A stretch of 16,873 nt of DNA from Elusimicrobiota bacterium (GTDB taxonomy: Bacteria > CG03 > SLGR01 > JAGXOG01): NCBI GenBank assembly GCA_051745145.1, contig JBNJDT010000034.1, positions 1-16,873 of the forward strand, written 5' to 3'. Position numbers and translations under genes: made by a program. Positions within the stretch are counted from its first letter, which is position 1; the number at the start of each line of letters is the position of its first letter. The notes beneath the pieces were generated by a model. That model did not search any database. It was not told the DNA's origin and saw only the letters and a list, made by a program, of their open reading frames with translations. Shown piece by piece: positions 1 to 14,274 of the stretch.

Positions 1-161
1 TCTATTGTCTTTTGGGGAACTCCTTCAGGTAGAGTGACAGTGACATATGTATTCATACTAAAATTTGTATGTTTCTGGAAATTTCTATCTGAGTCCCGGC
101 AGCCGGCTAATACGGCACAGATTAACAGTATCTCAAAAATTTTAAATTTTAAATTACTCAT
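1..161 (-). CDS. apbE: Lipoprotein, probable ApbE/RnfF-family FAD:protein FMN transferase (5' part only; runs off the window edge)
   Basis: Not in the ORF track. Manual translation from ATG at 161..159 gives MSNLKFKIFEILLICAVLAGCRDSDRNFQKHTNFSMNTYVTVTLPEGVPQKTI. It has a LAGC lipobox followed by F-x-M-N-T-x-V-x-V-T-L, resembling the ApbE N-terminal 'MGT.v.it' strand. It lies directly downstream of an rnf-like operon that carries an SGAT flavinylation motif. Only 53 codons are visible. Confidence 0.65.
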   Translation of the reverse strand, partial: MSNLKFKIFEILLICAVLAGCRDSDRNFQKHTNFSMNTYVTVTLPEGVPQKTI

Positions 162-177
162 CTATTTGAAAAAATAA

Positions 178-753
178 TTATTCTATAATTTTCAGCGCCT
201 CTGTAGGACACTTACGTACACACACCTTACAACCGGTGCATCTTTGAAAATTAACTGACGGCAACCCGTTTTCGGTAAGATCTATGGCATTTTCCGGACA
301 GACATTTACGCAGATATAACATTTAATGCACCCCTTAGGACAGTATTCTTCAACTTCTTCGGGTTTTAAAGAAGTATTACATGATAAATATACTTTTCCC
401 TCACTCTGTTCAACCATCTTAATAAGATTAACCGGACACACTTCCATGCATATCCCGCAGCCGGTACATTTTTCATAAATAACATCCAGATTTTCGGTAA
501 TTGCATTCTCCGGACAACTTTTTATACACGATTTAAGCCCCAGGCAACTATCTTTACACACATAATTATTTTTAAATTTTCGGTAAGCTACCCGGCAGTC
601 TTTAATATTACCGTAATTAAATTCAGTTTCCCGGGGCAATGTGCATTTAATAATAGCTGCTGCCGGCTTAGATTCTTTAGTTCTGGGATTTTTAAAAACA
701 GGCTGCTTATATAAAATAAATACCAATATTACTAAAATAACAACGGCCCACAT
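178..753 (-). CDS. rnfB: RnfB-like membrane-anchored polyferredoxin, lacking the N-terminal Fe-S domain
   Basis: N-terminal hydrophobic anchor. RnfB-type segment Y.NIKDC..A.......CKDSCLGLKSCIKSCP, then CTGCGICMEVCP, CPKGCIKCYICVNVCP and CTGCKVCVRKCP. Last gene of a C-D-G-E-A-B order, with a TAATG overlap with the upstream gene at 751-755. Confidence 0.8.
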   Translation of the reverse strand: MWAVVILVILVFILYKQPVFKNPRTKESKPAAAIIKCTLPRETEFNYGNIKDCRVAYRKFKNNYVCKDSCLGLKSCIKSCPENAITENLDVIYEKCTGCGICMEVCPVNLIKMVEQSEGKVYLSCNTSLKPEEVEEYCPKGCIKCYICVNVCPENAIDLTENGLPSVNFQRCTGCKVCVRKCPTEALKIIE

Positions 754-1274
754 TATTTTAATCCCTCCATCAATAGCATAAATAGAGAAATTATAATTAA
801 AATGACCTGTTCTGGCTTTATATTACTATTTTTCTCAATATTAATATTTTTATAAACGGAATACACTGCAAAAACTAATCCTAAAAAACCTGTTAAAATA
901 AGTCCGGCCATATTTATATAATCCATAAAATTAGCCCCTGCTGTGCTGACATGAATAATTAAACCGGCCGCGAAGAGACTGTAATAGGCCCCCGGTTCTT
1001 TTTTTATCTCAGTAAAATTAAATATTCTGCCGGTTATTTCTCCGGCAATTATTACCACAAACGGGATCGCCATTAAATACAGCACTGGATCTTGGACCGC
1101 AGAAATTTCATTTAACCCCATGTAAATAAACAGCCCTGTTACAGAATGAGTTATTAAATATATGTAGTATTTAAGTAGATCTTTGGAATTATCCACCTCA
1201 GGGAGAATATCTACAATAAACCGGAGTCCGAAAAATAAGAAAAATGAACTTTTTAATAACTGTAAAATATTCAA
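753..1274 (-). CDS. Highly divergent RnfA-like integral membrane protein (no cysteines)
   Basis: Multi-pass hydrophobic 173 aa protein in the rnfA slot. Its C-terminal half (GAYYSLF...ANFMDYINMAGLILTGFLGLVFAVYSV...VILIIISLFMLLMEGL) follows the RnfA pattern (GIYLPLI..NC...NF.QS...G...GF.L.L.L...IR...IALI.AGLM.LAF.GF). TTG start overlaps the upstream TGA stop. Confidence 0.55.
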   Translation of the reverse strand: MNILQLLKSSFFLFFGLRFIVDILPEVDNSKDLLKYYIYLITHSVTGLFIYMGLNEISAVQDPVLYLMAIPFVVIIAGEITGRIFNFTEIKKEPGAYYSLFAAGLIIHVSTAGANFMDYINMAGLILTGFLGLVFAVYSVYKNINIEKNSNIKPEQVILIIISLFMLLMEGLK

Positions 1275-1759
1275 ATTTTTATTCTCCGGAGTATAAAACT
1301 GTAAATTATCATAATCAACACTGTGTATAACATTAACAATCCGGCCGTTATATTTGGCACCCGGCTTATTAATAAAGCAGTAAACCCCAAAGTTCCAAAA
1401 CCGGCGACTATGCCGCTAAACCAGAATAAATCGGCCCGGAATGAAAAATTTCCCGTTCCCCGACCGGTTACATAAACTGTCCAAATTACCGCTAAAGTAT
1501 GGAAAATTCCCAGCTCTCCTGAGGGAATAACCCCGAATAATAAAGCTGACCATATAACCGTAAGTACCAATAATTCTCTGCGGTCCAGATAATCAAATAA
1601 AAAATAATTAATTATACCCCCGCCCAATACTGCTGATAACCCGGTTATAATCGATATAGCAGGCTCCAAGCCGTAATATATAAAACCAAGCAAGGGAACT
1701 ACCCCCGCTCCCCGGGAAAATACTGTCTGTATACCTTTAATGAAGTTTGTTTTTTGCAT
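1271..1759 (-). CDS. Highly divergent RnfE-like integral membrane protein (no cysteines)
   Basis: Sits in the rnfE slot. FIKGI...GAGVVPLLG aligns with RnfE F.NG.....LGLCPLLA, and LGIFHTLAVIWTVYVTGRG aligns with RnfE LGIFIPLIVVNCIILGRAE. Confidence 0.6.
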   Translation of the reverse strand: MQKTNFIKGIQTVFSRGAGVVPLLGFIYYGLEPAISIITGLSAVLGGGIINYFLFDYLDRRELLVLTVIWSALLFGVIPSGELGIFHTLAVIWTVYVTGRGTGNFSFRADLFWFSGIVAGFGTLGFTALLISRVPNITAGLLMLYTVLIMIIYSFILRRIKI

Positions 1760-2192
1760 CTTGAATGGCTTCCAGTAAGCCCTCGCTTGACTGTGTCGCT
1801 CCGCTTACCGCATCAATGTCGGTTGTCTGATTATCTATGATTCGGGGAATAATTTCCCCCCGGACCTTATTCCAGTATTTGCTTATCTCCCGGGACTCAA
1901 TAACCTCAATATCTGTAATAACCGGCGAGCTTCCCGGTCCCCTATTTTCAAAAGTAACTTCTACTATTATCTTCCCGGCAAACCCCTGGCCCGTTCCTTT
2001 TTTGACTACATCTTTTTTTAATCCGGGGGAAGGGTCTTCTTTTTCTACAGTTCCCTTAGAAACACCGCCCTTTTTTTGTTGTTTTTCCTGTGCTTTTTCG
2101 TGACCCGGACTCTTTTTCACAGCAGTATTTTTCTGTGATGATATAATAAAAGCTACCGCCAAAGACAATATTATAACAATAATTTTTCTCAT
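1737..2192 (-). CDS. Membrane-anchored FMN-binding-domain protein in the RnfG position
   Basis: N-terminal signal/anchor helix, Lys/Glu/Pro-rich linker, then an FMN_bind-type domain (GTGQGFAGKIIVEVTF...ITDIEVIES.E...DIDAVSGATQSS) with an intact [S/T]GA[T] ApbE flavinylation motif. Confidence 0.85.
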   Translation of the reverse strand: MRKIIVIILSLAVAFIISSQKNTAVKKSPGHEKAQEKQQKKGGVSKGTVEKEDPSPGLKKDVVKKGTGQGFAGKIIVEVTFENRGPGSSPVITDIEVIESREISKYWNKVRGEIIPRIIDNQTTDIDAVSGATQSSEGLLEAIQDAKNKLH

Positions 2193-2941
2193 ATATTTTC
2201 CACTATACTTCCAACTAAAGCACCGGCCAATATTCCCAAAACCCCAAAAATAGAAATTGCAATACCCGTAACCAGGCCGGTAATTCCCTTATCCTTATTT
2301 TGCAATGGAAGAACTCCGGGATAGGAAAGCAATAAACTTCCCCACAGGAAAAGAGGCAGATAATTGTTAAATTCCGCCCAGCCGGAAAAAATTAACTTTG
2401 TTATTAAAAATCCCAGCGCTATAAATAATATAAAATAGAGATTAACCCTTTTTCTAAAGATTAGATATATTATCCCTGCCAGATATAAATAAACTGTAAT
2501 GCCAAAATTATCGGGCCCGAACGAATTAATATATTTCATCAAAAGTAACGGCGCTATAATTACCGGTTTAAACGGGGTCACCGGCGGCCCTTTAAATATT
2601 ATTTCATATATTATAATCGATAATAGCACCGCCCCCCCTACAATAACAAACCTATTTGTTCCCGTTACGGACAGCCTGTACCAGACCATAAGAAATATTA
2701 AAATTCCGGTGACTGCAGATTGCAAAATTTTTACTGTAATCTTTTTCTTTTTAAAATAACCTGTTATTCCAAAAGTAAATGCAGATATAATTAAAATCCC
2801 CAGGAATTCAACTCCCTGGCCAGTTAAAAATAACCGGTAACCCAAAGCCGGCAGCAGAGCAATCAATAAATCAGTCCATACGTATAACTCCTCGCGAGAT
2901 TTATGGGCAAAAGGAGGTAACCCCACCATAAACGTATTCAT
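2189..2941 (-). CDS. rnfD: Divergent, shortened RnfD-like membrane protein (about 250 aa)
   Basis: Start re-assigned to the ATG at 2941, which overlaps the rnfC TGA stop as ATGA. The N-terminus MNTFMVGLPPFAH.....WTDLLIALLPAL matches RnfD 'SSPH.H......M.DV.IAL.PA'. AVTGILI, IFKGPPVTPFKP (cf. LFGG.G.N.FNPA) and AGIIYLIFRKRV (cf. GG.YL..RK.I) also match. Confidence 0.7.
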   Translation of the reverse strand: MNTFMVGLPPFAHKSREELYVWTDLLIALLPALGYRLFLTGQGVEFLGILIISAFTFGITGYFKKKKITVKILQSAVTGILIFLMVWYRLSVTGTNRFVIVGGAVLLSIIIYEIIFKGPPVTPFKPVIIAPLLLMKYINSFGPDNFGITVYLYLAGIIYLIFRKRVNLYFILFIALGFLITKLIFSGWAEFNNYLPLFLWGSLLLSYPGVLPLQNKDKGITGLVTGIAISIFGVLGILAGALVGSIVENI

Positions 2942-3918
2942 TCTAAATACCATCCCGGACATAAAAACCCGCACAATCCACATCCGATACACCCGTCTAC
3001 TTTAGAAAAAGGAATAAATCCCCGGCCGTTTTTAAAAATTTTAAGGATATGGGGGCTTTCCAGATATTGGGGGCAAACTTCTATACATTTTCCGCACCCG
3101 ATACACCCGTCTAATTTACTGCTGTAATTATTTAGTATTATTAAATTATCAAAATTACCGGCCCGTAAATCTTCCATGGATTTTACCGCCTGTCCGGACA
3201 GCAAACCGTTCTTTACAACAAATTTACCGGTACCCCCTATCTTATCTATTAACTCCCTGGCTACGGTATTTTTATTAACCTTAAAAAGGTGGTTTATTTT
3301 TTCATAATTTAAAATCACATATTCATTTTCATCGGTTTCAGAATAGTCTATAAATCTGTAAAGTTTAATTAATTTTTCTATTGCTACCACCAGATTCCCC
3401 CTTTTTCCCGGAAAATAATTATCTCTCTTTTTTATCCCGTATATGTATTTCCATAATATCTCATTAAATCCGAGAGGATACCGGTTCTTCTCCTCTTTAA
3501 GAAAGATATTAGGAGACCGTCGAATTTGCTCATCCAGTTTATTTATAAATTCCATATGCCGGGGAACTATTAACCGGCCGTAATCCGCGGCAACAGCTTT
3601 CATGATTAACTTCAACCCGCCGATTATTTGAAAATTGAAAAGCTCCAGGAGTATGTTTCTATAACCGATAAAAGGATACTTAACCATCCCGTTTCCAGTC
3701 ACCCGGCCGCATCCCACTTTCTCTATTTTTAGTAATTCCCTTTCAGTAAAAACACCGGACTGAATAATTTTTTCTCTTAAGTAGTCTCTATCTTCCGTGT
3801 GAAACTTAGATGGCGGCCGTTTTTTGTCTTTTCCGGATTTTTCTTTCTTTTCGCGGTAATCTACCAAATCCATCCGGGGTATATTTATTCTAACTTTCCC
3901 TCTTAAACTTTTTAACAT
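2938..3918 (-). CDS. rnfC: Divergent RnfC-like protein with a C-terminal 2x[4Fe-4S] domain
   Basis: YPLGFNEILWKYIYG (cf. YP.G.EK.LI....G), GTGKFVVKNGLLSG (cf. GG....I.GGPMMG), and CIGCGKCIEVCP plus CIGCGLCGFLCP. First gene of the C-D-G-E-A-B order. Confidence 0.7.
   Translation of the reverse strand: MLKSLRGKVRINIPRMDLVDYREKKEKSGKDKKRPPSKFHTEDRDYLREKIIQSGVFTERELLKIEKVGCGRVTGNGMVKYPFIGYRNILLELFNFQIIGGLKLIMKAVAADYGRLIVPRHMEFINKLDEQIRRSPNIFLKEEKNRYPLGFNEILWKYIYGIKKRDNYFPGKRGNLVVAIEKLIKLYRFIDYSETDENEYVILNYEKINHLFKVNKNTVARELIDKIGGTGKFVVKNGLLSGQAVKSMEDLRAGNFDNLIILNNYSSKLDGCIGCGKCIEVCPQYLESPHILKIFKNGRGFIPFSKVDGCIGCGLCGFLCPGWYLE
2981..3118. repeat. 24-bp near-identical direct repeat (22/24; 16-bp exact core) encoding both ferredoxin motifs of the RnfC-like protein
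   Basis: catccgatacacccgtctacttta (2981-3004) versus cacccgatacacccgtctaattta (3095-3118). These encode K-V-D-G-C-I-G-C and K-L-D-G-C-I-G-C. Confidence 0.85.
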
Positions 3919-4817
3919 AATTGGAGGACCTTTTCTATTGTGTTAGTATGTATATCCACTGTATCTTTTAACTCTTTTGATTTTCCGCCCCCCAATAATA
4001 CGGACACCGAAATATTATTTGAAATTGCTTCGTTTAATACAATTTCATCTCTTTTAATAAAATCTCTCTTTTCCAGCTTTAAATCCCCCAAAAGGTCTTC
4101 TTTATAACTACAGGCTCCGGCTATATATATTATAATATCCGGTTTTAAAAAATCTAATTCTTTTTTCAGCTGTTTTTTCAACATATTATTATAAGTCTTA
4201 CCGGAAATATTTTCACTTAAAGAAAAACCCCGGTCCGGGGTTTCCTTAATTATAGGATAAAACTCTTTAGAGTAAAAAGAGAGCACTCTGATATTCTTAT
4301 TGGGCTTTAATATGCTTATAGTACCGTCTGCCTGGTGTAGGTCGCAATCTAAAATCAAAACCCGGCGCCCATCACGGGCTAATTTTAACGCCCCGTAAGC
4401 CACATCGTTAAATACTGTAAAAGCACCGGGTCTATTTTTGTGGGCGTGGGTGAAGCCTCCTCCAATAAATACGCTGCCTCCATCTTCTAAAGCCGCCCGG
4501 CCGCTAAGATAAACCCCGGTGCAGGAGCTAAGAGCAACTTCAGCCGCTTTTTTAGGATATTTAAGTTCTGTCTGAATCTGCTCGGCAACCGACAAATCGC
4601 CGTTTAAGGCTCTATAAATATAATCTTTTGTATGAATACAACTAAGTTCCTCCGGGGAAAGAGAAGGAGTAATTTGAAAAGATTCCCGGCTAAAATATTC
4701 TTTTTCTAACAGCCACTTTTTTATTAATCTGTATTTTTCAAAAGGGTAAGAAGCAGAATCGGAAAGTTCTTCGTAACCGGGATTGTAAAAAATTTCGGAT
4801 TTAACTGACTTCGGCAA
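3912..4817 (-). CDS. Histone deacetylase/AcuC-family protein with substituted catalytic residues
   Basis: HDAC-fold motifs: YPFEKY, L..IHT.DYI, GGGFTHA, GAFTVFND, LDCDLHQADGT, PD.I.Y.AGAC...EDLLG and LGGGK. TTG start. Confidence 0.85.
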   Translation of the reverse strand: MPKSVKSEIFYNPGYEELSDSASYPFEKYRLIKKWLLEKEYFSRESFQITPSLSPEELSCIHTKDYIYRALNGDLSVAEQIQTELKYPKKAAEVALSSCTGVYLSGRAALEDGGSVFIGGGFTHAHKNRPGAFTVFNDVAYGALKLARDGRRVLILDCDLHQADGTISILKPNKNIRVLSFYSKEFYPIIKETPDRGFSLSENISGKTYNNMLKKQLKKELDFLKPDIIIYIAGACSYKEDLLGDLKLEKRDFIKRDEIVLNEAISNNISVSVLLGGGKSKELKDTVDIHTNTIEKVLQLC

Positions 4818-4826
4818 ATTATTCTG

Positions 4827-5489
4827 CTACCAGATATAACGAACTTTGCCGCCCAGGGTAACCCCCAGGAGACTGCCGGCCGGAGTATCGGTGGTCATAA
4901 AACTTTTTAAGCCCACAAACCAGTCCCAGTTGGGATTCATGGGAAAAACTTCCATGCCCATTTTTTGCTGAAACCCAAAAGCTGTCGTCACGGGGTGGGA
5001 AATAGTCTCTCCCGGTTCAGAGCCGGGGGTGGCCCTGTGATTACCCAGGGGTTCTTTACTGTAAAATACGTGATACATTCCGATTCCTCCTCCTATATAA
5101 AAAGCATCGTAAATCGTATATATAAAATTTACGGTCATCGGAACAACATTTAATTTTACAGATATATTTTTTCCGGCGTCATCTAAAACATCCTGGGAAT
5201 AACTCTGTATATCGCCTTCTATTTCCTCTTCGGTGTAATTTACTTCTTCAAGCGATCCAAACATATATCCAAGCCCTAACTCCAAAGATTTCGAATCTAC
5301 CTCCCGAATGCCGGTTATCATAAGAGCGGGAGAAAGAAGTCTGCCGCTTTGAGCGGCATCACCTACCGCAAGACCTAACTCGCCGCCAAGCTCCCAATCT
5401 TCCCAGGAAGCGGCCCGGGCAATATTGAAAAAAGTAATTACTACAGCTACCAGAAATGTAAATATTCTAAAATACCGGTATCTTCTCAT
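4827..5489 (-). CDS. Outer-membrane beta-barrel protein (OmpW/OmpA-transmembrane-like)
   Basis: Signal peptide ending ARA-A. Amphipathic strands such as VVPMTVNFIY, FYIGGGIGMY and WDWFVGLK. C-terminal aromatic signature GGKVRYIW. Confidence 0.7.
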   Translation of the reverse strand: MRRYRYFRIFTFLVAVVITFFNIARAASWEDWELGGELGLAVGDAAQSGRLLSPALMITGIREVDSKSLELGLGYMFGSLEEVNYTEEEIEGDIQSYSQDVLDDAGKNISVKLNVVPMTVNFIYTIYDAFYIGGGIGMYHVFYSKEPLGNHRATPGSEPGETISHPVTTAFGFQQKMGMEVFPMNPNWDWFVGLKSFMTTDTPAGSLLGVTLGGKVRYIW

Positions 5490-6397
5490 CCTTTCTCTTT
5501 TAAAAGGTCTTCTAAGATTGCCTGCTGGATATGCATTCTATTTTCCGCCTGTTCAAATACATAGGAGTGTTCTCCGTCCATGACCTCATCGGTAATCTCC
5601 TCGCCCCGGTGGGCGGGCAGACAATGCATTACCATGACATCGGATTTGGCAACTTCCAGCAAATCTGTATCCACCCGATAGGAAGAAAATTTTTCCAGTC
5701 TCTGGGACTGTTCCTGTTCATCTCCCATACTAACCCATACATCGGTGTATATAGCATCCGCATCTTTAGAAGCTTCAACCGGATCGTTTAAAATTTCTAT
5801 ATTGGGGTTCTTCTTTTGGGCCGGGCTGATAATTTCATCGGCGGGTTCAAAATTTTCCGGTGAAGCAACGCTCAGCTGAAAGCCGAAAATCCCGGCTGCA
5901 TTTATGAGGGAATTACATACATTATTACCGTCCCCTATAAACGAAACTTTTAAATTCTCAAAATCAAATCCCTTGACCTCTGCTATGGACATAACATCGC
6001 CCATGGCCTGACAGGGATGTAAAAGATCAGTCAAACCGTTAATAACCGGAACTCCGGCAGCTTTTCCCATCTCTATGACATCCCGGTGGGAATAGGTTCT
6101 GATCATTATGGCATCCACATATCCGCCCAGGGTTTTAGAAGTATCGTAAATAGTCTCACCTCTGGAAAGCTGTAGAGTTTCGCTTCCAAGGTAAAGAGCA
6201 TCGCCGCCCAGCCGTTTCATAGCTATATGAAAAGAGACATTTGTCCTGGTGGACGGCTTTGTAAATATCATAGCCAGATTTTTATTCTTGCCCGCTTTCG
6301 GGGTCTCACCATTTTTAAGTTCAATACCTCTTTTTAAAAGTCCAGTCAGGTATTTTTCACCGTGATTCCTTAAATCAATTAAATTATTTTTATTCAT
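5486..6397 (-). CDS. argF: Ornithine carbamoyltransferase
   Basis: Canonical motifs F.KPSTRT, NGLTD..HPCQ, GDGNNV, YTDVWVSMG and HCLPAHRG, plus AENR. Confidence 0.95.
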   Translation of the reverse strand: MNKNNLIDLRNHGEKYLTGLLKRGIELKNGETPKAGKNKNLAMIFTKPSTRTNVSFHIAMKRLGGDALYLGSETLQLSRGETIYDTSKTLGGYVDAIMIRTYSHRDVIEMGKAAGVPVINGLTDLLHPCQAMGDVMSIAEVKGFDFENLKVSFIGDGNNVCNSLINAAGIFGFQLSVASPENFEPADEIISPAQKKNPNIEILNDPVEASKDADAIYTDVWVSMGDEQEQSQRLEKFSSYRVDTDLLEVAKSDVMVMHCLPAHRGEEITDEVMDGEHSYVFEQAENRMHIQQAILEDLLKEKG

Positions 6398-7595
6398 TAT
6401 CCTTTAACACCGCATCTACATCTTTCAAACCGTTCCCGGTCAGCAAACAAACTGCCGGAGAAAGCTTTCCAATATCTTCCCCGCTGCCGGCCAGTTTTCT
6501 AAGGCCCGCAACGCTGGTTACTCCCGCAGGTTCGGCAAAAACCCCGGTATTCTCAGCCAGATAAGATATATTATCTATGATTTCTTTATCCGGCACCCTT
6601 ACCGACCGGCCGCCGGTTTCTAAAACAGACCGGACTGCAGCTATACCGTCCCTGGGCTGGTCCACGGCAATGGAATCGGCAACAGTTGAAGCCTGCACCA
6701 TCTCCATCTTAATATCCCGGGGACTGATATTTTTATCATCTATATTTTCCAGGGTTCTGGTAACAGCATCTGAGTTGGCGCTTTGAACTGCTATAATTTT
6801 GGGCATCTTTTCTATAAGATCCAGTTCTTTTAAATCCCGGAACCCTTTCCATACCCCGCTTATTATATTACCGTCACCCACAGGTACAAAAACTGAACCC
6901 GGAGCTTTGTAACTTAACTGCTCCCATATTTCAAAAGCAACAGATTTTTTTCCTTCTCTGGTATAAGGATTATATCCGGTACACCGGTTAAAATAATTAT
7001 TCTCCAGAGAGTCGGACACGCAAAGATCATAGGCCTCATCATAAGTACCCGAGACCAATCGCACATCGGCTCCGTAGACTCCCAGCTGGGCTATTTTAGC
7101 CCGGGGTGCTGACTCGGGCACATATATTATAACTTCCACACCAGATGCCGCTCCCATACAGGCCCAGGAGCATCCGGCATTTCCCGTTGACGCACAACTT
7201 ACCACCTCAATACCTTTCTCCCGGGCCACGGCCATAACCACAGAACTGGCCCGGTCTTTAAATGAAGCTGACGGCAGGCGGGTATCATCTTTTAAATACA
7301 CCTTATCCAGTCCCGTCTGTTCAGCTATATCTTTATTGTCATACAACGGGGTAAGCGACATATCCAGAGCAGGTATAAACCTGCTATCCTCAAAAGGGAA
7401 AAGAGGCATGTAACGCCATACATCCCGCTGGGGATTGTTCTTTAAGGCGGGTACTGAAAATATTCTTTTTATATCGTCGTAATCATAGGTTACATCCAGA
7501 TTACCAGAACAATCTTTGCAGGTGTACCCGTCATAATCCGGGGAATGCTGTTTTCCGCAGACCAGACACTCAAAACCGGTCATAAAATTCGACAT
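6390..7595 (-). CDS. Threonine-synthase-like fold-type II PLP enzyme with N-terminal CxxC...CxxC zinc ribbon
   Basis: SFKDR (PLP lysine), CASTGNAG, NP...EG.K, VPVGDGN, EPAG and LTGNGLK. N-terminal CLVC...CKDC. Substrate uncertain, so no gene symbol is given. Confidence 0.85.
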   Translation of the reverse strand: MSNFMTGFECLVCGKQHSPDYDGYTCKDCSGNLDVTYDYDDIKRIFSVPALKNNPQRDVWRYMPLFPFEDSRFIPALDMSLTPLYDNKDIAEQTGLDKVYLKDDTRLPSASFKDRASSVVMAVAREKGIEVVSCASTGNAGCSWACMGAASGVEVIIYVPESAPRAKIAQLGVYGADVRLVSGTYDEAYDLCVSDSLENNYFNRCTGYNPYTREGKKSVAFEIWEQLSYKAPGSVFVPVGDGNIISGVWKGFRDLKELDLIEKMPKIIAVQSANSDAVTRTLENIDDKNISPRDIKMEMVQASTVADSIAVDQPRDGIAAVRSVLETGGRSVRVPDKEIIDNISYLAENTGVFAEPAGVTSVAGLRKLAGSGEDIGKLSPAVCLLTGNGLKDVDAVLKDNE

Positions 7596-7596
7596 A

Positions 7597-8538
7597 TTAC
7601 TTAGTAAAAGTAGTGCCGGTTTTACCCGTAGCGCAATCCTTTAAATTAGCAGGTGAAGTAACTACTGCTTTTTTGCCGCCGTCTTCTATATACCGGAGGA
7701 TAGCCTTAATTTTAGGCAGCATACTGCCCTCGGCAAAATGGCCTTCATCAATATACTTTTTAGCTTCTTCAACAGAAAGGGAAGATAATTTTTTCTCATC
7801 ATCCTGTCCGAAATTTAAGCATACATTATCAACAGCAGTTGAGATTATAAACATATCCGCATCCAGGCGGGTAGCCAGCAGGGCAGAAGCATAATCTTTA
7901 TCAATTACAGCGGGTACCCCTTTTAACATGCCGTCATCCCGCTTGTAAACCGGTACGCCACCGCCACCTACGCCGATAACAGTATAACCGCTCTTAGCTA
8001 AAGCACCGATGGCATCTTCTTCGAGTATCTGCTTGGGATCCGGAGAGGGTACTACCCTACGGTAACCGCGGCCGGCATCTTCAACTATATTCCAGCCCTC
8101 TTCACTCTCTTTTTCCTTAGCTTTTTTTTCATCCATAAAGCTCCCTATGGGCTTGGAAGGATTTTCAAAAGCGGGATCGTCTTTATCTACCAGAACTCTG
8201 GTTATTACTGTTGCAGCTTCCTTCTGAATTCCCCTATTATCGAATTCGTTTTTTAAGGCCTGCTGGAACAGGTAACCTATGGCGCCCTGAGTATCCGCCC
8301 CGCAAGAATCCAAAGGAACAGGATGTATCCCTTCTTTTTCTCCCAGTTCCGAACGTCTCAGAATAAAACCCACCTGCGGGCCGTTTCCATGGGTAATTAT
8401 AACATCCCATCCGTCTTCTATAAGATCCACAATATGTTTGGAAGTCTCCACTACCGCCGAATACTGGTCGGGCACACTCTGGTGCTGGGCATCCTTAATA
8501 AGTGAATTTCCACCAACTGCGATTACTGCTAAAGGCAT
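7597..8538 (-). CDS. arcC: Carbamate kinase (ArcC/YqeA)
   Basis: AVGGNS, THGNGPQVG, GADTQG.IGY, DPAF.NP.KPIG, EDAGRGYRRVVPSP, GGGGVPV, AVIDKD and GSMLPK. GGAGG Shine-Dalgarno upstream. Confidence 0.95.
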   Translation of the reverse strand: MPLAVIAVGGNSLIKDAQHQSVPDQYSAVVETSKHIVDLIEDGWDVIITHGNGPQVGFILRRSELGEKEGIHPVPLDSCGADTQGAIGYLFQQALKNEFDNRGIQKEAATVITRVLVDKDDPAFENPSKPIGSFMDEKKAKEKESEEGWNIVEDAGRGYRRVVPSPDPKQILEEDAIGALAKSGYTVIGVGGGGVPVYKRDDGMLKGVPAVIDKDYASALLATRLDADMFIISTAVDNVCLNFGQDDEKKLSSLSVEEAKKYIDEGHFAEGSMLPKIKAILRYIEDGGKKAVVTSPANLKDCATGKTGTTFTK

Positions 8539-8583
8539 ATTTAAATCCTCCGTTTTTTAACTTTCATTTACTGCCAACTAAAT

Positions 8584-9606
8584 TTATTCTGCCATGGTTA
8601 AAGCCATTATAGCTTTTTGGACATGAAGTCTGTTTTCAGCTATATCTACAATAATAGACCGGGGCCCGGACGCAACTTCATCAGTAACTTCATGATTTCT
8701 GTCCACAGGCATAGGGTGAGAAAATACAGCGTCATTAGTTATTTGCATTTTTTCCTCATCACAAATCCAGTCTTCATATTTTAGGGCTTTTTCTATCTCT
8801 TCCTCTTTGCGGAGCTTTCCGCCGCGATAGGCGTCTTTACTCATCCAGTTTCTGGAATAAACTATATCCGCATCTTCGTAAGCTTCGGCCGGATCGTTGG
8901 ATACTGCAAACTCAGTACCGTTTTCCTGGCAATTTTTCTTAGTCCACTCTAAAACTTCATCGTCAAGTTCATAACCTTCGGGATGGGCTACTCTGACATT
9001 CATTCCCATTCTCGAGTTTATTAACATACTCTCGTGTACCGAGCAGTGTGAACGGGCCAGGGCACCGTGTCCCCAGGCATGAACAATAGTCTTGTCTTTT
9101 AAATCTTCACTTACGTGTTTGCGATATCCCATTACATCGGCAAGTCCCTGACAGGGATGAAACCTATCGTGAGCCATGCTTATTATAGGCATATCGGCAT
9201 ATTTAGCATAATTTTTAAGCAACTGATCGCCCAGTCCGTACTCTCCGATTTTATCTTCCAATATTCTTATGCCCAAACCAACTGCATAGCGGGACATAAC
9301 TTTAGCGGCGTCTTCTACTGTTTCTCCTGCCGAATCTTTTGTTTTTAGTCTCATGGCAGAAGGTTCTAAGAATAAGGCGTGTCCCCCTAATTCTGTAGCC
9401 GCAATTTCAAATGACTGCCTGGTTCTAACCGAAGGGTTATAAAAAAACATTAAAAAACTTTTACTATTTAAAATATTTGTAAACTCCGGAGCAAATCTTT
9501 TTTTCTGCATCTCTTCAGCCAATTCTAAAACTTCTAAAAGTTCTTCCTTTGACCAATCCTGTGTGGTAATTAAATCTTTACCGTAATATTTTGATTTTCC
9601 TTCCAT
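8584..9606 (-). CDS. Divergent carbamoyltransferase of the YgeW/AOTCase-like group (second paralog)
   Basis: NPSVRTR, HPCQGLAD, AWG, ADIVYSRNW, HPMPVDR and AENRLH. Lacks the OTCase DxxxSMG ornithine loop. AGGAGG Shine-Dalgarno upstream. Confidence 0.85.
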   Translation of the reverse strand: MEGKSKYYGKDLITTQDWSKEELLEVLELAEEMQKKRFAPEFTNILNSKSFLMFFYNPSVRTRQSFEIAATELGGHALFLEPSAMRLKTKDSAGETVEDAAKVMSRYAVGLGIRILEDKIGEYGLGDQLLKNYAKYADMPIISMAHDRFHPCQGLADVMGYRKHVSEDLKDKTIVHAWGHGALARSHCSVHESMLINSRMGMNVRVAHPEGYELDDEVLEWTKKNCQENGTEFAVSNDPAEAYEDADIVYSRNWMSKDAYRGGKLRKEEEIEKALKYEDWICDEEKMQITNDAVFSHPMPVDRNHEVTDEVASGPRSIIVDIAENRLHVQKAIMALTMAE

Positions 9607-9640
9607 TTTTCCTCCTATATAACATGTATACTCTATTGAA

Positions 9641-9681
9641 AAGCTACGGCGCGTAAATTTAAGATTACGCGCCGATAGCTT
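9641..9681 (-). terminator. Intergenic GC-rich stem-loop (terminator-like or mRNA-stabilising) between the two carbamoyltransferase genes
   Basis: aagctacggcgcgtaa (9641-9656) and ttacgcgccgatagctt (9665-9681) pair as 16 bp with one bulge. On the minus strand it ends in only a short U tract (TTTTC). Confidence 0.65.
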
Positions 9682-9695
9682 CTACTTTTCTTAAA

Positions 9696-10772
9696 TTACA
9701 GCCGGCCGCCCATTAACATTGCCATAATTGCTTTATGGGCATGTAACCGGTTTTCAGCTTCGTCTATAACTACAGACTGAGATCCGTCAATTACCGGATC
9801 CGTAACTTCCTGGCCTCTGTCAGCGGGCAAACAATGCATATATTTACCGTTTTTGTTTACCAGATTCATCTGCTTTTCAGTTGTCATCCAATCTTTATTA
9901 GCCTCGTTTAGTTCTTCAGCTTTTTCCAGGTCCTGTTCTTTAACTGTTTTATTATTCTCATCTGTATAATTAAAACAGGAAGCAGCTCCCCAGGATTTAG
10001 GATAAACTATATCCGCATCTTCGAAACCTTCGTCAAAATCATCGGTGATTCCAAAAGAACCATTTTCCTGATCGGCAAAACTTTTGCAGGTTTCTATGAC
10101 ATTAGGATCCAGTTCAAAACCTTCCGGACGGGCCAGAGTCACATCCATCCCCATCTTTGAGGCGGCAAGTATTACGCTCTGGGGTACAGCCCGCGGTTTT
10201 TCAATTGAACCGGAATAGGCCCAGGACATAGTCAGTTTTTTGTTTTTAAACCCGCCCATCTTTTCTTTTATAGTCATAAGATCAGCAAGGGCCTGGGTGG
10301 GATGATATTTATCACACTCCATATTAATCACGGGTATATCAGCCCATTCAGCAAACTCTTTAATGGTCTCATTTGCAAATCCGTAAATCCAGTGAGCCTT
10401 AGGTCCATACATTCTTATGGCTATAGCATCACCTACTCTACTGAGAATCCTCGAAACATCGGAAATTCTCTCTGTTTCATAAGGTATTTCAAAACCTTTT
10501 CTGGCCGGGGTGTAAGTTTTACCCGGTTCCAGATCAACATGATAACCACCTAACTGCTGTATTCCGGCCGCAAATGTGCACCGGGTCCTGAGAGACTGAT
10601 TAAAAAATATAGTAAATAAAGTCTGCCCTCTTAAAAGATCATCCATGGGTTCTTTCATGGCATATCTTCTTTTAAGTTCCAGACCTACATCAATCATGGT
10701 CTCCCATTCCTCTTTGGAAAAATCCAAAGTTGCATCAATCCAATCTCTTCCAAAAAATCGATTAGTCTTCAT
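9696..10772 (-). CDS. ygeW: YgeW-like carbamoyltransferase
   Basis: SLRTR, HPTQALAD, KKLTMSWAYSGSIEKPRAVPQS (cf. E. coli YgeW-type WAYSPSYGKPLSVPQG), DIVYPKSW, YMHCLPAD and EAENRLH. AGGAGG Shine-Dalgarno at 10781-10786. Confidence 0.8.
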   Translation of the reverse strand: MKTNRFFGRDWIDATLDFSKEEWETMIDVGLELKRRYAMKEPMDDLLRGQTLFTIFFNQSLRTRCTFAAGIQQLGGYHVDLEPGKTYTPARKGFEIPYETERISDVSRILSRVGDAIAIRMYGPKAHWIYGFANETIKEFAEWADIPVINMECDKYHPTQALADLMTIKEKMGGFKNKKLTMSWAYSGSIEKPRAVPQSVILAASKMGMDVTLARPEGFELDPNVIETCKSFADQENGSFGITDDFDEGFEDADIVYPKSWGAASCFNYTDENNKTVKEQDLEKAEELNEANKDWMTTEKQMNLVNKNGKYMHCLPADRGQEVTDPVIDGSQSVVIDEAENRLHAHKAIMAMLMGGRL

Positions 10773-10833
10773 CGATTATTCCTCCTTTTATTTGTTCTTA
10801 ACTTATTCCCAAGTTTCTATAATTTTAATGATG

Positions 10834-10863
10834 ATAATAACAAATTTAAAGTATCACTGTCAA
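10834..10863 (-). promoter_or_regulatory. Sigma70-type internal promoter upstream of ygeW
   Basis: Minus strand: TTGACA (10863-10858), 18-nt spacer ending TGT, then TATTAT (10839-10834). This is a perfect -35 and an extended TGn -10 with a 5/6 match, about 60 nt before the ATG. Confidence 0.7.
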
Positions 10864-11847
10864 TTACTTAGGTACAGTAAACTTTTTCTCTTTGCTAAAA
10901 TTTAAATTTTCAAACCAGTCTTTAATACAACATCTTACCTTATAGTCCCCGGACGGTAAACCCTTATAATCAAACACTAAATCATAAGGCGCCGAATCCA
11001 CCGGATACCCTATATCTTTCCAGCCATTGCCATTATTAATTTCCAAAGTTACTTCCGTTATATAATTGCCGGTTACTTTTGTATTCACTACCATACGGGT
11101 ATCCACGACAGGATGCTGTCTTAAATCTGTTATCTCCACCGAACTCTCCGGGGAACCTTTTTTAACCATTTTTATAGCGAGCCCCGGTTGAAAAAAATTT
11201 ATCCCGGTAGTCTCCCCCCCTTCTTTTACGAGAAAAGAGTTTTCTCCTTTTTCTTCTCCTATGCCCCCTGCAAGTACAGGGGCTGTTTTAACACTGTTAA
11301 GTTCTTTATCCGGACTCCACAGATGAATATAGTTAAAATCCTGTTTATTAATTTCCTCTTCGGAAACCTCAACCCAGAACCATTTGCTTTCTCTTACATA
11401 CTCGTCCGCCCGGGTAGGAGAACCCTCCCTGGGAATCTTATCAGTGGTAGTTAACAGTTTAGCCTGGGGACGTTGTTCTACAGAACCGGATAATCCTATG
11501 TGAATTCTATAGGGACCGTCTGACGGTTCTATATCAGATTCCTGTTCTCCCAAAATTTTCTCTATCTGTTTCTCTGTTTTAGCTCTACCCAGTTTTGCCC
11601 CTATAAAAAATCTATCATACTCTTTTGTTTTTGCCCGGGGAACTTTATTTATCCATCCGTGCCCATAACCGACATACCAGTTTCCCGACCAGCCGCCATT
11701 GGCAAAAAGATTATATTCGGCGGGCGTAGGGAGCCCCGATATAAAATCAGTATACTTATCATCCGTGCACCCGGACCCGGTTATTACCGAAAGCATTATA
11801 CCTGTTCCAATGAAAATTAAAATTTTGAATTTATTTAACTTTTTCAT
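10864..11847 (-). CDS. Hypothetical exported protein / probable lipoprotein with a C-terminal Ig-like beta domain
   Basis: Basic N-terminus, hydrophobic stretch and a lipobox-like GSGC. Aromatic/Gly motif YNLFANGGWSGNWYVGYGHGW. C-terminal APY.....Y..LP.G.Y.V.....D...N pattern typical of bacterial Ig-like domains. Confidence 0.65.
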   Translation of the reverse strand: MKKLNKFKILIFIGTGIMLSVITGSGCTDDKYTDFISGLPTPAEYNLFANGGWSGNWYVGYGHGWINKVPRAKTKEYDRFFIGAKLGRAKTEKQIEKILGEQESDIEPSDGPYRIHIGLSGSVEQRPQAKLLTTTDKIPREGSPTRADEYVRESKWFWVEVSEEEINKQDFNYIHLWSPDKELNSVKTAPVLAGGIGEEKGENSFLVKEGGETTGINFFQPGLAIKMVKKGSPESSVEITDLRQHPVVDTRMVVNTKVTGNYITEVTLEINNGNGWKDIGYPVDSAPYDLVFDYKGLPSGDYKVRCCIKDWFENLNFSKEKKFTVPK

Positions 11848-12904
11848 TTACTATAAATCCGGGCAAACCGGAATAAAATTCTACAGCTTTTTCAACTTCC
11901 AGGATATCAATTTTTTCTTCAGGGGAATGACATTCTTCTTCTTTTCCCGGACCAAACCCGATAGTGGGAATTTCTCTATCTCCGGCTGTGTAAGAACCGT
12001 TTGTACAGAAGGGCCAGAACTTTGTCTTTTCACTACCGGTTATCTGCTGTTGCGTTTTTCGGGCTGCAGCATATAAAGGATTGTCAAAAGATATTTTCCA
12101 GGGTTTATAATAAGGAGTAATACCTTCGACAAAATCTTTCTCCTTCACAATTTTTTTAAATGCTGATAGAATTTCCTGTTCGGATCTACCCACACCGCTT
12201 CTGTAATCACAATATACAGTGCATTTTTCCGGTATAATATTTATATTTTCATTTGAGGTCTCCACCTTGGTCACGACCACTGAATCTTTCTTTAATTCGG
12301 AATTAATTTCTTTTACTTTTTCTATTATTTTAACCGCCCGGTAAATAGAATTTTCTCCGGCTTCCGGGTCACTGGCGTGCCCGGCTTTGCCTGTAATATT
12401 CAATTTTATACCCAAACGGCCCCGGTTTCCAAAAGCCACCTTTAAGCCCGATGGTTCACCTATTACAATGTAATCCGGTTGAATTTCAGTTTCTTCAAAA
12501 AAGTTCTTCAGACCGTTCCCCTCGGCCACTTCTTCCCGAACACTCCCTACAACATACAGAGTTATCCCTTCTACATCAGCTTTCGCTCCCCCGTAAACCA
12601 TGGCCGCCAAGGATCCTTTATCATCGCAGGAGCCCCGGCCTATAAGATTTTTATCCTTCATCCTCACCTTGTAGGGATCGTCTTTCCAGCCCTGTCCGGG
12701 TTCTACAACATCCATATGAGCATCGTAAATCACTACCGTATTTCCGTCCCCGCGGCGACCGCAGATATTACCTCCGGATTCTATAACCTCATCGTAGTTG
12801 AGTTCTGAAAACTCCTTTTTAAGACGACCGGCAACTTTCTCTTCCCGGCCGGATAAGGATGGGATTTCAACTAACTCTTTTAAAAATTCTACAACCGGAG
12901 ACAT
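11831..12904 (-). CDS. ygeY: YgeY-family M20 metallohydrolase
   Basis: YDAHMDVV, GRGSCDDKG, V.EE, IGEP, G.RGR, GHAS.P, W.F.TNG (YgeY-type), GFGPG.E..CH. Adjacent to ssnA. Confidence 0.8.
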   Translation of the reverse strand: MSPVVEFLKELVEIPSLSGREEKVAGRLKKEFSELNYDEVIESGGNICGRRGDGNTVVIYDAHMDVVEPGQGWKDDPYKVRMKDKNLIGRGSCDDKGSLAAMVYGGAKADVEGITLYVVGSVREEVAEGNGLKNFFEETEIQPDYIVIGEPSGLKVAFGNRGRLGIKLNITGKAGHASDPEAGENSIYRAVKIIEKVKEINSELKKDSVVVTKVETSNENINIIPEKCTVYCDYRSGVGRSEQEILSAFKKIVKEKDFVEGITPYYKPWKISFDNPLYAAARKTQQQITGSEKTKFWPFCTNGSYTAGDREIPTIGFGPGKEEECHSPEEKIDILEVEKAVEFYSGLPGFIVNEKVK

Positions 12905-12905
12905 T

Positions 12906-14219
12906 TTACTCTATATTTTCCCAAACTTTTTTAGCAGTTTCCCTAGCCCGGGCTAAAACTTCCTCCTCTTTAATTTTTAGAATTTTCTTATGTCTCATCA
13001 GAATCTCACCGTCACAAATTGTACTATCTACTGAGTAATCTCCCATTCCAAAAAGAAAGTGTCCCAAAAAATTATCCTTATTGATAGGGGTAGCCGGATC
13101 GTAGTCTATGGTAACTATGTCGGCATAAGCTCCCGGTTTTAATTTACTGTTATCCCATCCCGTAATTTTATCTAAAATTTTGGGATTATTATTTAACAGC
13201 ATATCCGGAACTTCCGTAAAAGCTACCGCCGGATCCTGGTATTGATGCCTGGCCAGCAAAAAAGCAGTCCGGGCCTGACTTCTTACATCCGAACTCATCC
13301 CGTCCGTACCTATTCCCACATCTAAGCCTTCCGAATACATATCCAGTATTTTAGAATATCCGACAGCGTTATTCATATTACTCTCGGGATTATGAACTAC
13401 CGAAGAACCGGCCGCTTTTATCAGCTCCCTTTCGGACTGGTCTATATGTATGCAGTGTATTAATAAACTTTTTTTATTTAATGCCCCGGCTTCATGAAAT
13501 CTTTCTATAACTGATTGTCCGTATTTTTCGCGGGTTCTCTCCTGATCAGCAATGCCTTCTGCAGCGTGAACATGAATTCCGGCATTAAATTTTTCTGCCA
13601 GATGAACACTTTTTTCCAGTGTCTCCTGATCAACCGTAAAAGAGGCATGTAACCCAACCATGCCCTTTATTTTGTCAAAATCCTTTCTTAAAAAACGTTC
13701 ATTTTCTTCCAGGCCCTGTTCTCCTTTACCGAACCGGTCCGAGGCGCCCAGACATAAAACACCTTTTATTCCCATCTGTTCAACTGCCTTACTTATTTCA
13801 TCAAGACTGCCTATCTGATACGATTGACTCTCATGATGATCTATTACGGAAGTAACCCCGCACTTTATACTTTCTATGATAGGAACTATAGCTGAATAAT
13901 AAATAGCTTCCCTGAAAAGAGCATCGTCAAGTTTCCACCACATATTCTCAAGCACCTGGTCAAAATTACCGGTGGGCTCTGACGGGGCCCATCCCCGGGC
14001 AAAAGTTGAATAAAAGTGATGATGGGTATTTACAAAAGAGGGCATAATTATCTTTCCCGTAGCATCTAATACATCCGCGCTGTCGTATTTTCTTTTTATC
14101 TGAGATAATTCGCCAATAGCTTTTATTTTTTTTCCCTCTACTACCACTGCCCCGGGATTAAAAATTCTATTGTTTTCATCCAACGTCACCACTGTTCCGC
14201 CTTCGATTCTTACTGTCAT
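12906..14219 (-). CDS. ssnA: SsnA-family amidohydrolase
   Basis: NTHHHFYSTFARG, LE.MWWKLD, GVT.VIDHH, GLHASFT, HVHAAE, HNPESNMNNAVG and GTDG. AGGAG Shine-Dalgarno upstream. Confidence 0.9.
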   Translation of the reverse strand: MTVRIEGGTVVTLDENNRIFNPGAVVVEGKKIKAIGELSQIKRKYDSADVLDATGKIIMPSFVNTHHHFYSTFARGWAPSEPTGNFDQVLENMWWKLDDALFREAIYYSAIVPIIESIKCGVTSVIDHHESQSYQIGSLDEISKAVEQMGIKGVLCLGASDRFGKGEQGLEENERFLRKDFDKIKGMVGLHASFTVDQETLEKSVHLAEKFNAGIHVHAAEGIADQERTREKYGQSVIERFHEAGALNKKSLLIHCIHIDQSERELIKAAGSSVVHNPESNMNNAVGYSKILDMYSEGLDVGIGTDGMSSDVRSQARTAFLLARHQYQDPAVAFTEVPDMLLNNNPKILDKITGWDNSKLKPGAYADIVTIDYDPATPINKDNFLGHFLFGMGDYSVDSTICDGEILMRHKKILKIKEEEVLARARETAKKVWENIE

Positions 14220-14274
14220 AAAATTACTCCTTTCAAATTATAATTATTCATATTTTTTAAAAATTCCATCACTT

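Follow-up and report, generated by a model that had tools for sequence, protein, structure and literature searches.

A maintained, cofactor-depleted paralogue of the Rnf complex in an Elusimicrobiota genome

Introduction

In the Rnf complex, electrons pass from RnfB to a [2Fe-2S] cluster held by RnfA and RnfE, then to the flavin mononucleotide (FMN) of RnfG and the FMN of RnfD, and from there via the riboflavin of RnfD (7.7 Å) and the iron-sulfur (Fe-S) clusters of RnfC (11.7 Å) to the RnfC FMN and NAD+ (PMC12174285; PMC9588780). RnfB contributes a proximal [4Fe-4S] domain that is flexible, and the four membrane-core cofactors have been called strictly conserved in both RNF and Na+-NQR, the NADH:quinone oxidoreductase that translocates Na+ (PMC12174285). 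In the solved complex, the helices of RnfB and RnfG bundle with one helix each of RnfA and RnfE (PMC9588780). Here we describe a cluster of six genes related to rnf at one end of a 16,873-nt contig of an Elusimicrobiota bacterium (JBNJDT010000034.1, assembly GCA_051745145.1; this whole stretch is hereafter the window). We mark the six genes and their products with primes (C', D', G', E', A' and B'; the whole set is Rnf') to set them apart from canonical Rnf. Rnf' is a maintained, cofactor-depleted paralogue of Rnf, neither a relic nor a standard pump.

Reduced relatives of this architecture have been described. In the two-subunit Nqr/Rnf-like systems, an RnfD-like domain (PF03116) is fused to an NqrF-type NAD-binding domain (PF00175) (PMC8238504); the RnfD-like subunit is reported to be without the flavinylation Thr, and an AlphaFold-multimer model sets the RnfG-like flavin site beside a non-covalent flavin site (bioRxiv 10.1101/2024.03.13.584918). 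NqrA of Na+-NQR is an RnfC homologue that has lost all redox cofactors and is still a subunit (PMC12174285). The PF07456 protein EetB, described as the subunit for export of flavin adenine dinucleotide (FAD), is often co-localised with apbE and Rnf clusters (PMC9973259). Our literature searches returned no account of a cysteine-less RnfA/E or of the present cluster; the supplementary cluster lists of PMC8238504 and PMC9973259 lay outside these searches and could include members.

Results

Homology of the six proteins to Rnf subunits

The window is the whole contig C34 of a 1.8 Mb, 93%-complete source genome (G000), and all of its long open reading frames (ORFs) lie on the minus strand. The first 3918 positions hold six open, overlapping minus-strand genes in the order rnfC-D-G-E-A-B (178-3918), followed by the start of an ApbE lipoprotein gene (Table 1). 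The junctions read ATGA at both C'/D' and D'/G', TTGA at E'/A' and TAATG at A'/B', while G' and E' overlap by 23 nt. A sequence-only reading of this DNA had described six open, coupled genes in this order, and the ORF coordinates and junction letters agree with that description.

Single-sequence Pfam and NCBIfam scans picked up no more than FMN_bind in G', ferredoxin motifs in B' and C' and, weakly, RnfC in C'; for D', E' and A', neither database gave a match at E ≤ 1. Since these scans were blind to D', E' and A', profiles were needed. Canonical alignments were taken from the same genome set (27 RnfA, 28 RnfE, 37 RnfD, 20 RnfG, 23 RnfB and 5 RnfC sequences), and the Rnf' alignments from positional orthologues of relatives, that of E' being enlarged by the matches of an exhaustive profile search.

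Compared by hhalign, all six Rnf' profiles matched the Rnf counterpart to which the sequence-only reading had assigned them, at 87-99.95%. C' matched canonical RnfC at 99.7% (E 8e-26; C' 33-322 on RnfC columns 119-423), B' matched RnfB at 99.95% (B' 28-191 on RnfB columns 110-278), G' matched RnfG at 97.0%, and D' matched RnfD at 96.9% (E 2e-10, 218 columns). E' (18 sequences) matched RnfE over the full length at 87.1% (E 4e-6) versus 3.1% for RnfA, and A' (11 sequences) matched RnfA over the full length at 94.6% (E 7e-8) versus 0.1% for RnfE. Cross-comparisons with non-matching canonical subunits all gave 6.5% or less. Compared with each other as paralogues, E' and A' gave 8.9% with small alignments and 46.7% with larger ones.

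Searches of PDB sequences with the membrane-subunit profiles ranked the same families first. For D', the three matches at E ≤ 10 among all PDB sequences were all RnfD (7zc6_D, 2e-7); for E', NqrD (0.011) and RnfE (0.028) led, and for A', more weakly, RnfA (0.21) and NqrE (0.34). AlphaFold models of E' and A' had predicted local distance difference test (pLDDT) values of 87 and 82. Among 48,161 chains, both models had the same top three, the RnfA, NqrE and RnfE chains 8ahx_A, 7xk3_E and 7zc6_E, aligned over 154-167 residues, with Z-scores for E' of 11.6, 11.2 and 10.3 and for A' of 13.0, 12.8 and 11.3. The first unrelated chain after these reached 8.2 with A' and 9.4 with E', the latter just 0.9 under the third Rnf-type match. 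In Foldseek, the first eight rows for the E' model were all NqrD, RnfE or RnfA chains. Structural homology of the membrane subunits to RnfA, RnfD and RnfE, on which the earlier assignment depended, was thus found in the folds of E' and A' and in the profile of D'.

The six proteins are distant from the curated families. C' scored 51 bits against TIGR01945 (rnfC), with a cut-off of 246, and PF03116 (RnfD) gave 14 bits, with a cut-off of 27.7; weak PF03116 matches were present in four D' orthologues. Neither E' nor A' matched PF02508 (Rnf-Nqr). G' reached 41 bits with PF04205 and 19 with TIGR01947 (rnfG; cut-off 102), and B' fell narrowly under TIGR01944 (rnfB; 67 bits versus 68.7) and missed the RnfB equivalog models by far. 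In word-index protein searches, D' matched only itself, C' matched 5 proteins and the A' profile 4. The exhaustive search of 1.84 billion representatives with the E' profile returned 20 proteins at E ≤ 0.001, none of them a canonical RnfE or NqrD, which indicates that the E' family is rare and that profile-profile and fold comparison was needed to link it to RnfE.

The profile and fold matches, together with the gene order, indicate descent of the cluster from an rnfCDGEAB operon. It is very likely that each of the six proteins derives from the Rnf subunit of the same letter, and most likely they form the same membrane assembly, in which C' and B' face the cytoplasm and the flavin domain of G' the periplasm.

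Loss and retention of cofactor sites

The sequence-only reading had claimed that the RnfA and RnfE slots lack Cys, that the RnfD slot lacks the flavinylation loop and that the FMN motifs of RnfC are gone, and each of these losses was borne out. A' and E' of the window contain no Cys, and in the alignments of 11 A' and 18 E' sequences no column held Cys or His in at least 30% of the rows. By the same threshold no conserved Met column was present in E' or A', apart from the start Met and scattered Met. In the canonical control, by contrast, two Cys columns were found in 27 of 27 RnfA and 28 of 28 RnfE sequences, and their counterparts in A' and E' read otherwise.

In D', hhalign left the T..ATPL stretch of RnfD unmatched. 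Likewise, the HMMER alignment of D' with 7zc6_D ended at residue 136 and resumed at residue 186, skipping the FMN Thr at residue 153. RnfD Asn124 (Clostridium tetanomorphum numbering) aligned, in a remote alignment, with Pro in the D' family and Lys in the window, and Asp248 of the TDP motif aligned with the invariant Tyr of the D' YPG motif, in a second HMMER stretch that is not significant alone. C' lacks roughly the first 110 residues of RnfC, that is, the RnfC N-terminal domain, and gave no PF13375 match. The FMN/NADH loop of RnfC (GmGGAgFP, of the GxGGAGFP type) is replaced in C' by an eight-residue gap, ECEPY reads ciSPf, and the PF01512 score was 23 bits against a cut-off of 31. The membrane-proximal [4Fe-4S] domain of RnfB has no counterpart in B'. 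The losses therefore go beyond those first noted: the proximal Fe-S domain of B' and the whole N-terminal domain of C' are missing as well, and D', E' and A' had escaped single-sequence scans.

A link is lost in every segment of the known Rnf route, so that Rnf' should not be a ferredoxin:NAD+ pump. In agreement with the sequence-only reading, we consider it likely, judging from the lost sites, that Rnf' is not a ferredoxin:NAD+ ion pump. Could it still be a ferredoxin-dependent ion pump that works with unconventional ligands or cofactors? All six subunits are kept, with Fe-S motifs on both cytoplasmic subunits and an FMN motif on G', as such a pump would need. However, E' and A' offer no conserved Cys, His or Met column, C' has neither the FMN/NADH loop nor the N-terminal domain, B' is without the proximal cluster domain and has disappeared altogether from some lineages; moreover, the strict conservation of membrane-core cofactors reported across RNF and NQR (PMC12174285) makes such a substitution very improbable.

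Other sites are retained, as had also been noted before. In C', the two 4Fe-4S motifs comprise eight Cys that do not vary in any of the 12 sequences, and Fer4_7, Fer4_9 and Fer4_10 scored above their cut-offs. B' holds 20 Cys in four Fer4 stretches, and its full-length orthologues hold 20-21. G' of the window carries the motif DAVSGATQSS, in which the SGAT of the earlier description is present; among its orthologues the motif is [ST]GAT in 8 of 10 and TEAT in 2 of 10 (L027 and L089), and the Thr of the flavinylation site is present in 10 of 10. G' is therefore predicted to carry an ApbE target Thr with covalent FMN.

Distribution, conservation and selection

An orthologue of C' was found at full length in 12 of the 14 genomes of the order, with 327-449 bits. 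The two others, G005 (80% complete) and G007 (97% complete), gave no C', nor did the 12 genomes examined from the rest of the phylum, in which only canonical RnfC matched, at 111 bits or less. Scanned with the C' profile, genomes yielded 33 loci, 9 of them true clusters, and metagenomes 39 loci, 1 of them a further true cluster. The remaining loci were rejected as ferredoxin-motif-only matches or as a different RnfC plus RnfD pair in metagenome-assembled genomes (MAGs) of Bacilli. The latter (L101-L104) form a distinct reduced Rnf-type module, in which an RnfC-like protein of 397 aa (Complex1_51K, two 4Fe-4S motifs) comes first, followed by an RnfD-like protein of 291 aa (PF03116, 84 bits) and a 527-aa protein without a Pfam match; no RnfG, RnfE, RnfA or RnfB gene lies nearby in L101.

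Complete C'-A' sets, with the same losses, were available from the window and 10 further syntenic loci in several families; none of the five genes is interrupted in any of these 11 clusters, and their lengths are similar. Seven of the clusters have a full-length B', two (L027 of G006, and L098) a B' cut to 93 aa with 8-9 Cys, and two (L025 of G008 and L089 of G012) none. With the TEAT motif of L027 and L089 also in view, further reduction of Rnf' seems to be under way in one family. ApbE was found in 2 of the 11 complete clusters, a NusG_II protein in 5 and an EetB-Maf fusion in 11.

Between the source genome and G001, of the same genus, the identities of Rnf' and canonical proteins (Rnf'/canonical, %) were 56/81 for C, 45/68 for D, 42/69 for G, 58/89 for E, 50/95 for A and 59/72 for B. 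Between the source genome and G004, of the same order, they were 33/61 for C, 26/54 for D, 38/53 for G, 31/77 for E, 26/82 for A and 38/61 for B. RnfA and RnfE are the best-conserved canonical proteins within the genus, and the largest drop relative to the canonical proteins was in A and E, the subunits without their cluster. In all six genes, pN (0.27-0.38) was below pS (0.58-0.78); dS was saturated (1.1-2.5), so that dN/dS (0.13-0.33, undefined for G') is rough, and only the relation of pN to pS was used.

These data bear on the view that Rnf' is a functionless, decaying relic of a duplicated rnf operon. Its fast change (identities of 44-58% between congeners and of about 26-38% across the order, versus 68-95% and 53-82% for the canonical proteins), the loss of most catalytic motifs and the loss of B' in some lineages would fit such a relic. 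However, five genes remain open and of similar length in 11 complete clusters of several families, the coupling overlaps are kept, the Cys and Thr positions are invariant, and pN lies well under pS, a relation that speaks against neutral decay. Contigs from RNA libraries that are identical to the cluster also speak, weakly, against a relic, as carry-over of DNA is possible. We regard decay as extremely improbable; Rnf' appears to evolve fast under constraint and not by neutral decay. The earlier claim of selective retention rather than random decay is upheld by the invariant C' Cys and G' Thr and by the pN and pS values.

The RNA libraries were four runs of one study, in which short contigs had been assembled that match parts of B', E' and C' and the HDAC-like/C' and ApbE/B' junctions with 0-1 differences. 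Their depth was about 2-8 over the cluster versus 13-36 over argF. They give a hint of Rnf' expression, with DNA carry-over being possible and the uncovered parts meaning nothing. Two of these contigs (X2 and X4) join position 4073 to position 129 via nine other letters, and may be chimeras or a rearrangement in a relative.

Canonical Rnf and other flavin-related genes in the same genome

As the sequence-only reading had proposed to check, the genome was searched for a second, canonical rnf, which is present. An rnfC-G-E-A-B operon with all motifs lies on C42 (953-4706), and rnfD (341 bits) stands alone on C13 (16962-17993). In 11 of the 12 genomes of the order in which both were found, rnfD is apart from rnfE/A, the exception being G005, in which they share a contig; outside the order, the two genomes checked from other families of the phylum (G014 and G015) have rnfD and rnfE/A linked. 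In a tree of concatenated canonical RnfA and RnfE, the order formed one group (Shimodaira-Hasegawa-like approximate likelihood ratio test, 100) and the phylum stood apart from four outside genomes (99). Since this tree follows taxonomy, the canonical copy looks vertically inherited and Rnf' looks like the extra one, a result that is indicative with four outgroups.

The split canonical arrangement raises the alternative that Rnf' subunits mix with canonical ones and modulate canonical Rnf, either with D' or A'/E' swapped in or with the unlinked canonical RnfD serving both. The absence of rnfD from the canonical operon, and its separate position in 11 of 12 genomes, would leave room for such an exchange. 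However, Rnf' is a complete, translationally coupled set of six genes whose members co-vary in presence, and at about 10-20% identity to the canonical partners interchangeable interfaces are unlikely. In addition, G007 has the split canonical arrangement and no C', so that the split is independent of Rnf'. Mixing of the two sets is accordingly improbable.

ApbE and the EetB-type gene are each present once in the genome, and FMN_bind occurs in three of its proteins, namely RnfG, G' and a NapH/NosR-like frame on C36. The latter (5349-8873, plus strand; 1174 codons) combines FMN_bind (TSAT motif) with a NapH-like CxxxCP membrane ferredoxin part, and its N-terminus was judged by eye to be polytopic and spermidine-synthase-like. 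It would be a third ApbE substrate in the genome. Elsewhere, on C67 (2437-4991; L090), two tandem genes (331 and 329 aa) encode a divergent RnfD/NqrB-like domain (PF03116, about 51 bits) fused to DUF2769; they sit directly after a cupredoxin-like lipoprotein gene, and similar genes occur in G001 and G021.

Gene organization and neighbouring genes

Table 1. Coordinates of the Rnf' genes and adjoining features in the window
Feature	Positions	Strand	Description
C'	2938..3918	-	326 aa; RnfC-derived cytoplasmic Fe-S subunit; two 4Fe-4S motifs; without the RnfC N-terminal domain and FMN/NADH glycine loop
D'	2189..2941	-	250 aa from ATG (listed ORF extends to GTG at 2992); RnfD/NqrB-derived membrane subunit
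G'	1737..2192	-	151 aa; RnfG-like; N-terminal membrane anchor, extracytoplasmic FMN_bind domain, ApbE target motif DAVSGAT
E'	1271..1759	-	162 aa; RnfE/NqrD-derived six-helix membrane subunit; zero Cys
A'	753..1274	-	173 aa; RnfA/NqrE-derived six-helix membrane subunit; zero Cys
B'	178..753	-	191 aa; RnfB-derived; N-terminal membrane helix fused straight to C-terminal polyferredoxin part (20 Cys)
ApbE start	1..161	-	first 53 codons; flavin transferase; lipoprotein signal with LAGC lipobox; rest on contig C51
HDAC-family gene	3912..4817	-	deacetylase-fold; PF00850, 115 bits; 7-nt overlap with C' start
Conserved 220-aa protein	4827..5489	-	signal-peptide-like start; possibly outer-membrane protein; no Pfam match

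Downstream of B', the lipoprotein-type start of ApbE (MSNLKFKIFEILLICAVLAGC) begins at 161, 16 nt past the B' stop codon, and leaves the contig at its edge. Contig C51 ends with exactly the 99 nt with which the window begins, and the ApbE frame carries on in C51 (PF02424, 244 bits), in keeping with the apbE-like lipoprotein gene reported after the rnfB-like gene. After ApbE, C51 encodes a NusG_II-domain protein (PF07009, 120 aa, 72 bits), putatively EetA, and then a 358-aa fusion (C51:8249-9325; L087:2250-3326, minus strand) of an EetB-type part (PF07456, Hpre_diP_synt_I; 124 bits) with Maf (172 bits). The EetB-Maf fusion is the best-conserved gene of the set, with 47-74% identity, and follows 11 of 11 complete clusters.

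Upstream, a gene of the histone deacetylase (HDAC) family is the immediate neighbour of C' wherever a locus includes DNA on that side. Of 10 orthologues, 8 have intact catalytic motifs (GGGFHHA, DCDLHQGNGT, AGADPY and AGGYA; e.g. L021:5252-6154). In the window and in the congener G001, they read GGGFTHA, HQADGT, AGACSY and GGGKS/GGGNA, with the His-His pair, a zinc-ligand Asp and the catalytic Tyr replaced; the protein in this genus is probably a dead enzyme kept for another role. A complex prediction for the HDAC-like protein with C' scored 0.00 and gave no answer, being uninformative either way. Orthologues of the 220-aa protein are 45-65% identical and always lie between argF and the HDAC-like gene in loci that reach that far. 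Upstream of the cluster, a string of minus-strand genes (5486-16591) is kept across the order, encoding two amidohydrolases, a HEAT-repeat protein, an M20 peptidase, a 327-aa protein, two carbamoyltransferases like ornithine carbamoyltransferase (OTCase), a carbamate-kinase-like protein, a pyridoxal phosphate (PLP) enzyme, ArgF and a signal-peptide protein. This string, we assume, resembles the ygeW/ygeX/ygeY/hyuA/yqeA-type clusters for breakdown of nitrogen heterocycles.

With these neighbours in view, Rnf' might be a non-redox or indirectly redox device, with D', E' and A' as an ion or solute channel, a transporter or a scaffold and the Fe-S clusters of C' and B' as a redox sensor or gate; or it might be a flavin-trafficking platform together with ApbE, the NusG_II protein and EetB-Maf. 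The loss of every known membrane cofactor ligand, the constant presence of EetB-Maf after the 11 clusters and the nearby conserved string for breakdown of nitrogen compounds (carbamoyltransferases, carbamate-kinase-like protein, amidohydrolases and HDAC-like protein) are in line with this. So are two published points: ammonium/urea transporters are relatives of RnfD/NqrB, which contains a Na+ path, and NqrA provides the precedent of an Rnf-type subunit that is still in its complex without any cofactor (PMC12174285). However, D' has also replaced the conserved Asp and Asn proposed for the Na+ site of RnfD, and the invariant residues of E' and A' are only Gly or Leu, which would be odd for a selective channel. 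Furthermore, the strict keeping of the eight C' Cys and of the G' flavin Thr favours electron transfer over gating alone, and synteny in a small, tightly packed genome is weak evidence for shared function. On balance, we consider a device of this kind unlikely.

Discussion

The best overall explanation of these observations is that Rnf' is an extra six-subunit copy of Rnf that has arisen and been selectively kept in one Elusimicrobia-type order; taken together with the conduit proposed below, we put this explanation at roughly 40%. The same six subunit families, gene order and predicted topology, with single helices of the RnfB and RnfG type, six-helix proteins of the RnfA/E type and a polytopic RnfD-type protein, are found in canonical Rnf (7zc6, 8ahx and 9eri), and the two have in common the two 4Fe-4S motifs of C, the polyferredoxin of B, the ApbE-target Thr of G and an apbE gene in the operon. 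In contrast, canonical Rnf has, and Rnf' has not, the [2Fe-2S] Cys of A/E, the FMN loop and the Asn and Asp of D, the N-terminal domain and FMN/NADH loop of C, and the proximal domain of B. Rnf' also evolves two to three times faster than canonical Rnf, coexists with it in the same genome, and can dispense with B' in some lineages. Failing five defining cofactor features and the curated thresholds, Rnf' is an Rnf derivative and not a functional member of the family.

As to function, the invariant clusters of C' and the FMN site of G' lie at the two ends of a C-D-G arm, which suggests a conduit. In the tentative model that we favour, Rnf' would act as a one-way conduit from a cytoplasmic one-electron donor to the periplasm. 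Electrons would run from the Fe-S clusters of C' to a non-covalent flavin in D' and on to the FMN of G', which would dock at the former site of RnfD's own FMN loop. The Thr of G' would be served by ApbE and by the EetB-type FAD exporter encoded downstream. B' may be an optional antenna on the ferredoxin side, and A' and E' may survive solely because they anchor the single helices of G' and B', without cofactors of their own; their retention would be explained by the one helix of each that bundles with the RnfG and RnfB helices in the solved complex. The B-A/E arm is the decaying, dispensable arm, judging from its absence of Cys, its fastest rate shift and the loss or truncation of B' in 4 of 11 clusters.

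Several points weigh against this explanation. D' lacks the FMN loop and both of the polar residues that flank the riboflavin, so that a flavin in D' is an assumption, and we can name neither a cytoplasmic donor for C' nor a periplasmic acceptor for G'. The adjacency of ApbE and EetB could be a leftover of an ancestral operon layout; the only eetB and apbE copies in the genome must also serve canonical RnfG, RnfD and the NapH-like protein. In 2 of 10 orthologues the G' motif is TEAT instead of [ST]GAT. The assignments of E' and A' rest on shallow alignments (18 and 11 sequences), and, as the tool itself notes, Z-scores of 10-13 for helical bundles discriminate only moderately. That the six proteins assemble is deduced from homology and operon structure.

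The two-subunit Nqr/Rnf-like systems offer a parallel to the proposed conduit. As in Rnf', a D-type subunit without the flavinylation Thr is paired with a G-type flavinylation target, and one-way outward electron flow has been proposed; these systems, found in Actinobacteria and the Candidate Phyla Radiation (CPR), are without relatives of RnfC, RnfA, RnfE and RnfB as far as the published accounts go (PMC8238504; bioRxiv 10.1101/2024.03.13.584918). Unlike them, Rnf' has an unfused D' (no PF00175) and a C' that carries Fe-S clusters but lacks a nucleotide site; it has kept A', E' and, in most cases, B', and occurs in an Elusimicrobia-type order. Rnf' was rejected as a Meheust-type Nqr/Rnf-like system, as the 250-aa D' has no further domain and no PF00175 match. 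It was also rejected as Na+-NQR, since its sixth gene encodes an RnfB-like protein, the Fe-S motifs of C' are kept and no NqrF-type gene was present among the window ORFs scanned. NqrA, which has lost its Fe-S clusters too, differs from C', which keeps both 4Fe-4S motifs, and the membrane-core cofactors of NQR are all kept. With the ApbE/EetA/EetB module of the Listeria extracellular electron transfer (EET) locus (PMC9973259), the present cluster has in common ApbE and a PF07456 protein beside an FMN_bind target; here, however, EetB is fused to Maf in every member seen, and no ECF-T or ECF-A genes were seen in the cluster.

Placed between the full pump and the two-subunit systems, Rnf' might represent a new class of Rnf-derived machine, in which the pumping loop has been dismantled and one flavin-only, one-way arm is left to feed a periplasmic reaction in these fermenters; as a statement of class and of an intermediate toward the two-subunit Nqr/Rnf-like systems, this is doubtful at present. 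Genome-based metabolic reconstructions that take an operon with four of the six Rnf subunits for a functional complex, as in bioRxiv 10.1101/765248, would overlook D', E' and A' and might score C', G' and B' wrongly.

Known from one small lineage without cultured members, Rnf' is of interest for the mechanism and evolution of Rnf and NQR. Models of pumping rest on the membrane-core cofactors, and Rnf' sheds exactly those while keeping six proteins over the lifetime of a bacterial order, which makes it a natural knock-out series. It separates the parts of the architecture that are needed for assembly from those that are needed for catalysis, and indicates that an RnfA/E pair can persist without its cluster. 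Finally, Rnf' may reveal how the two-subunit, one-way RnfD/RnfG systems originated from a full pump.

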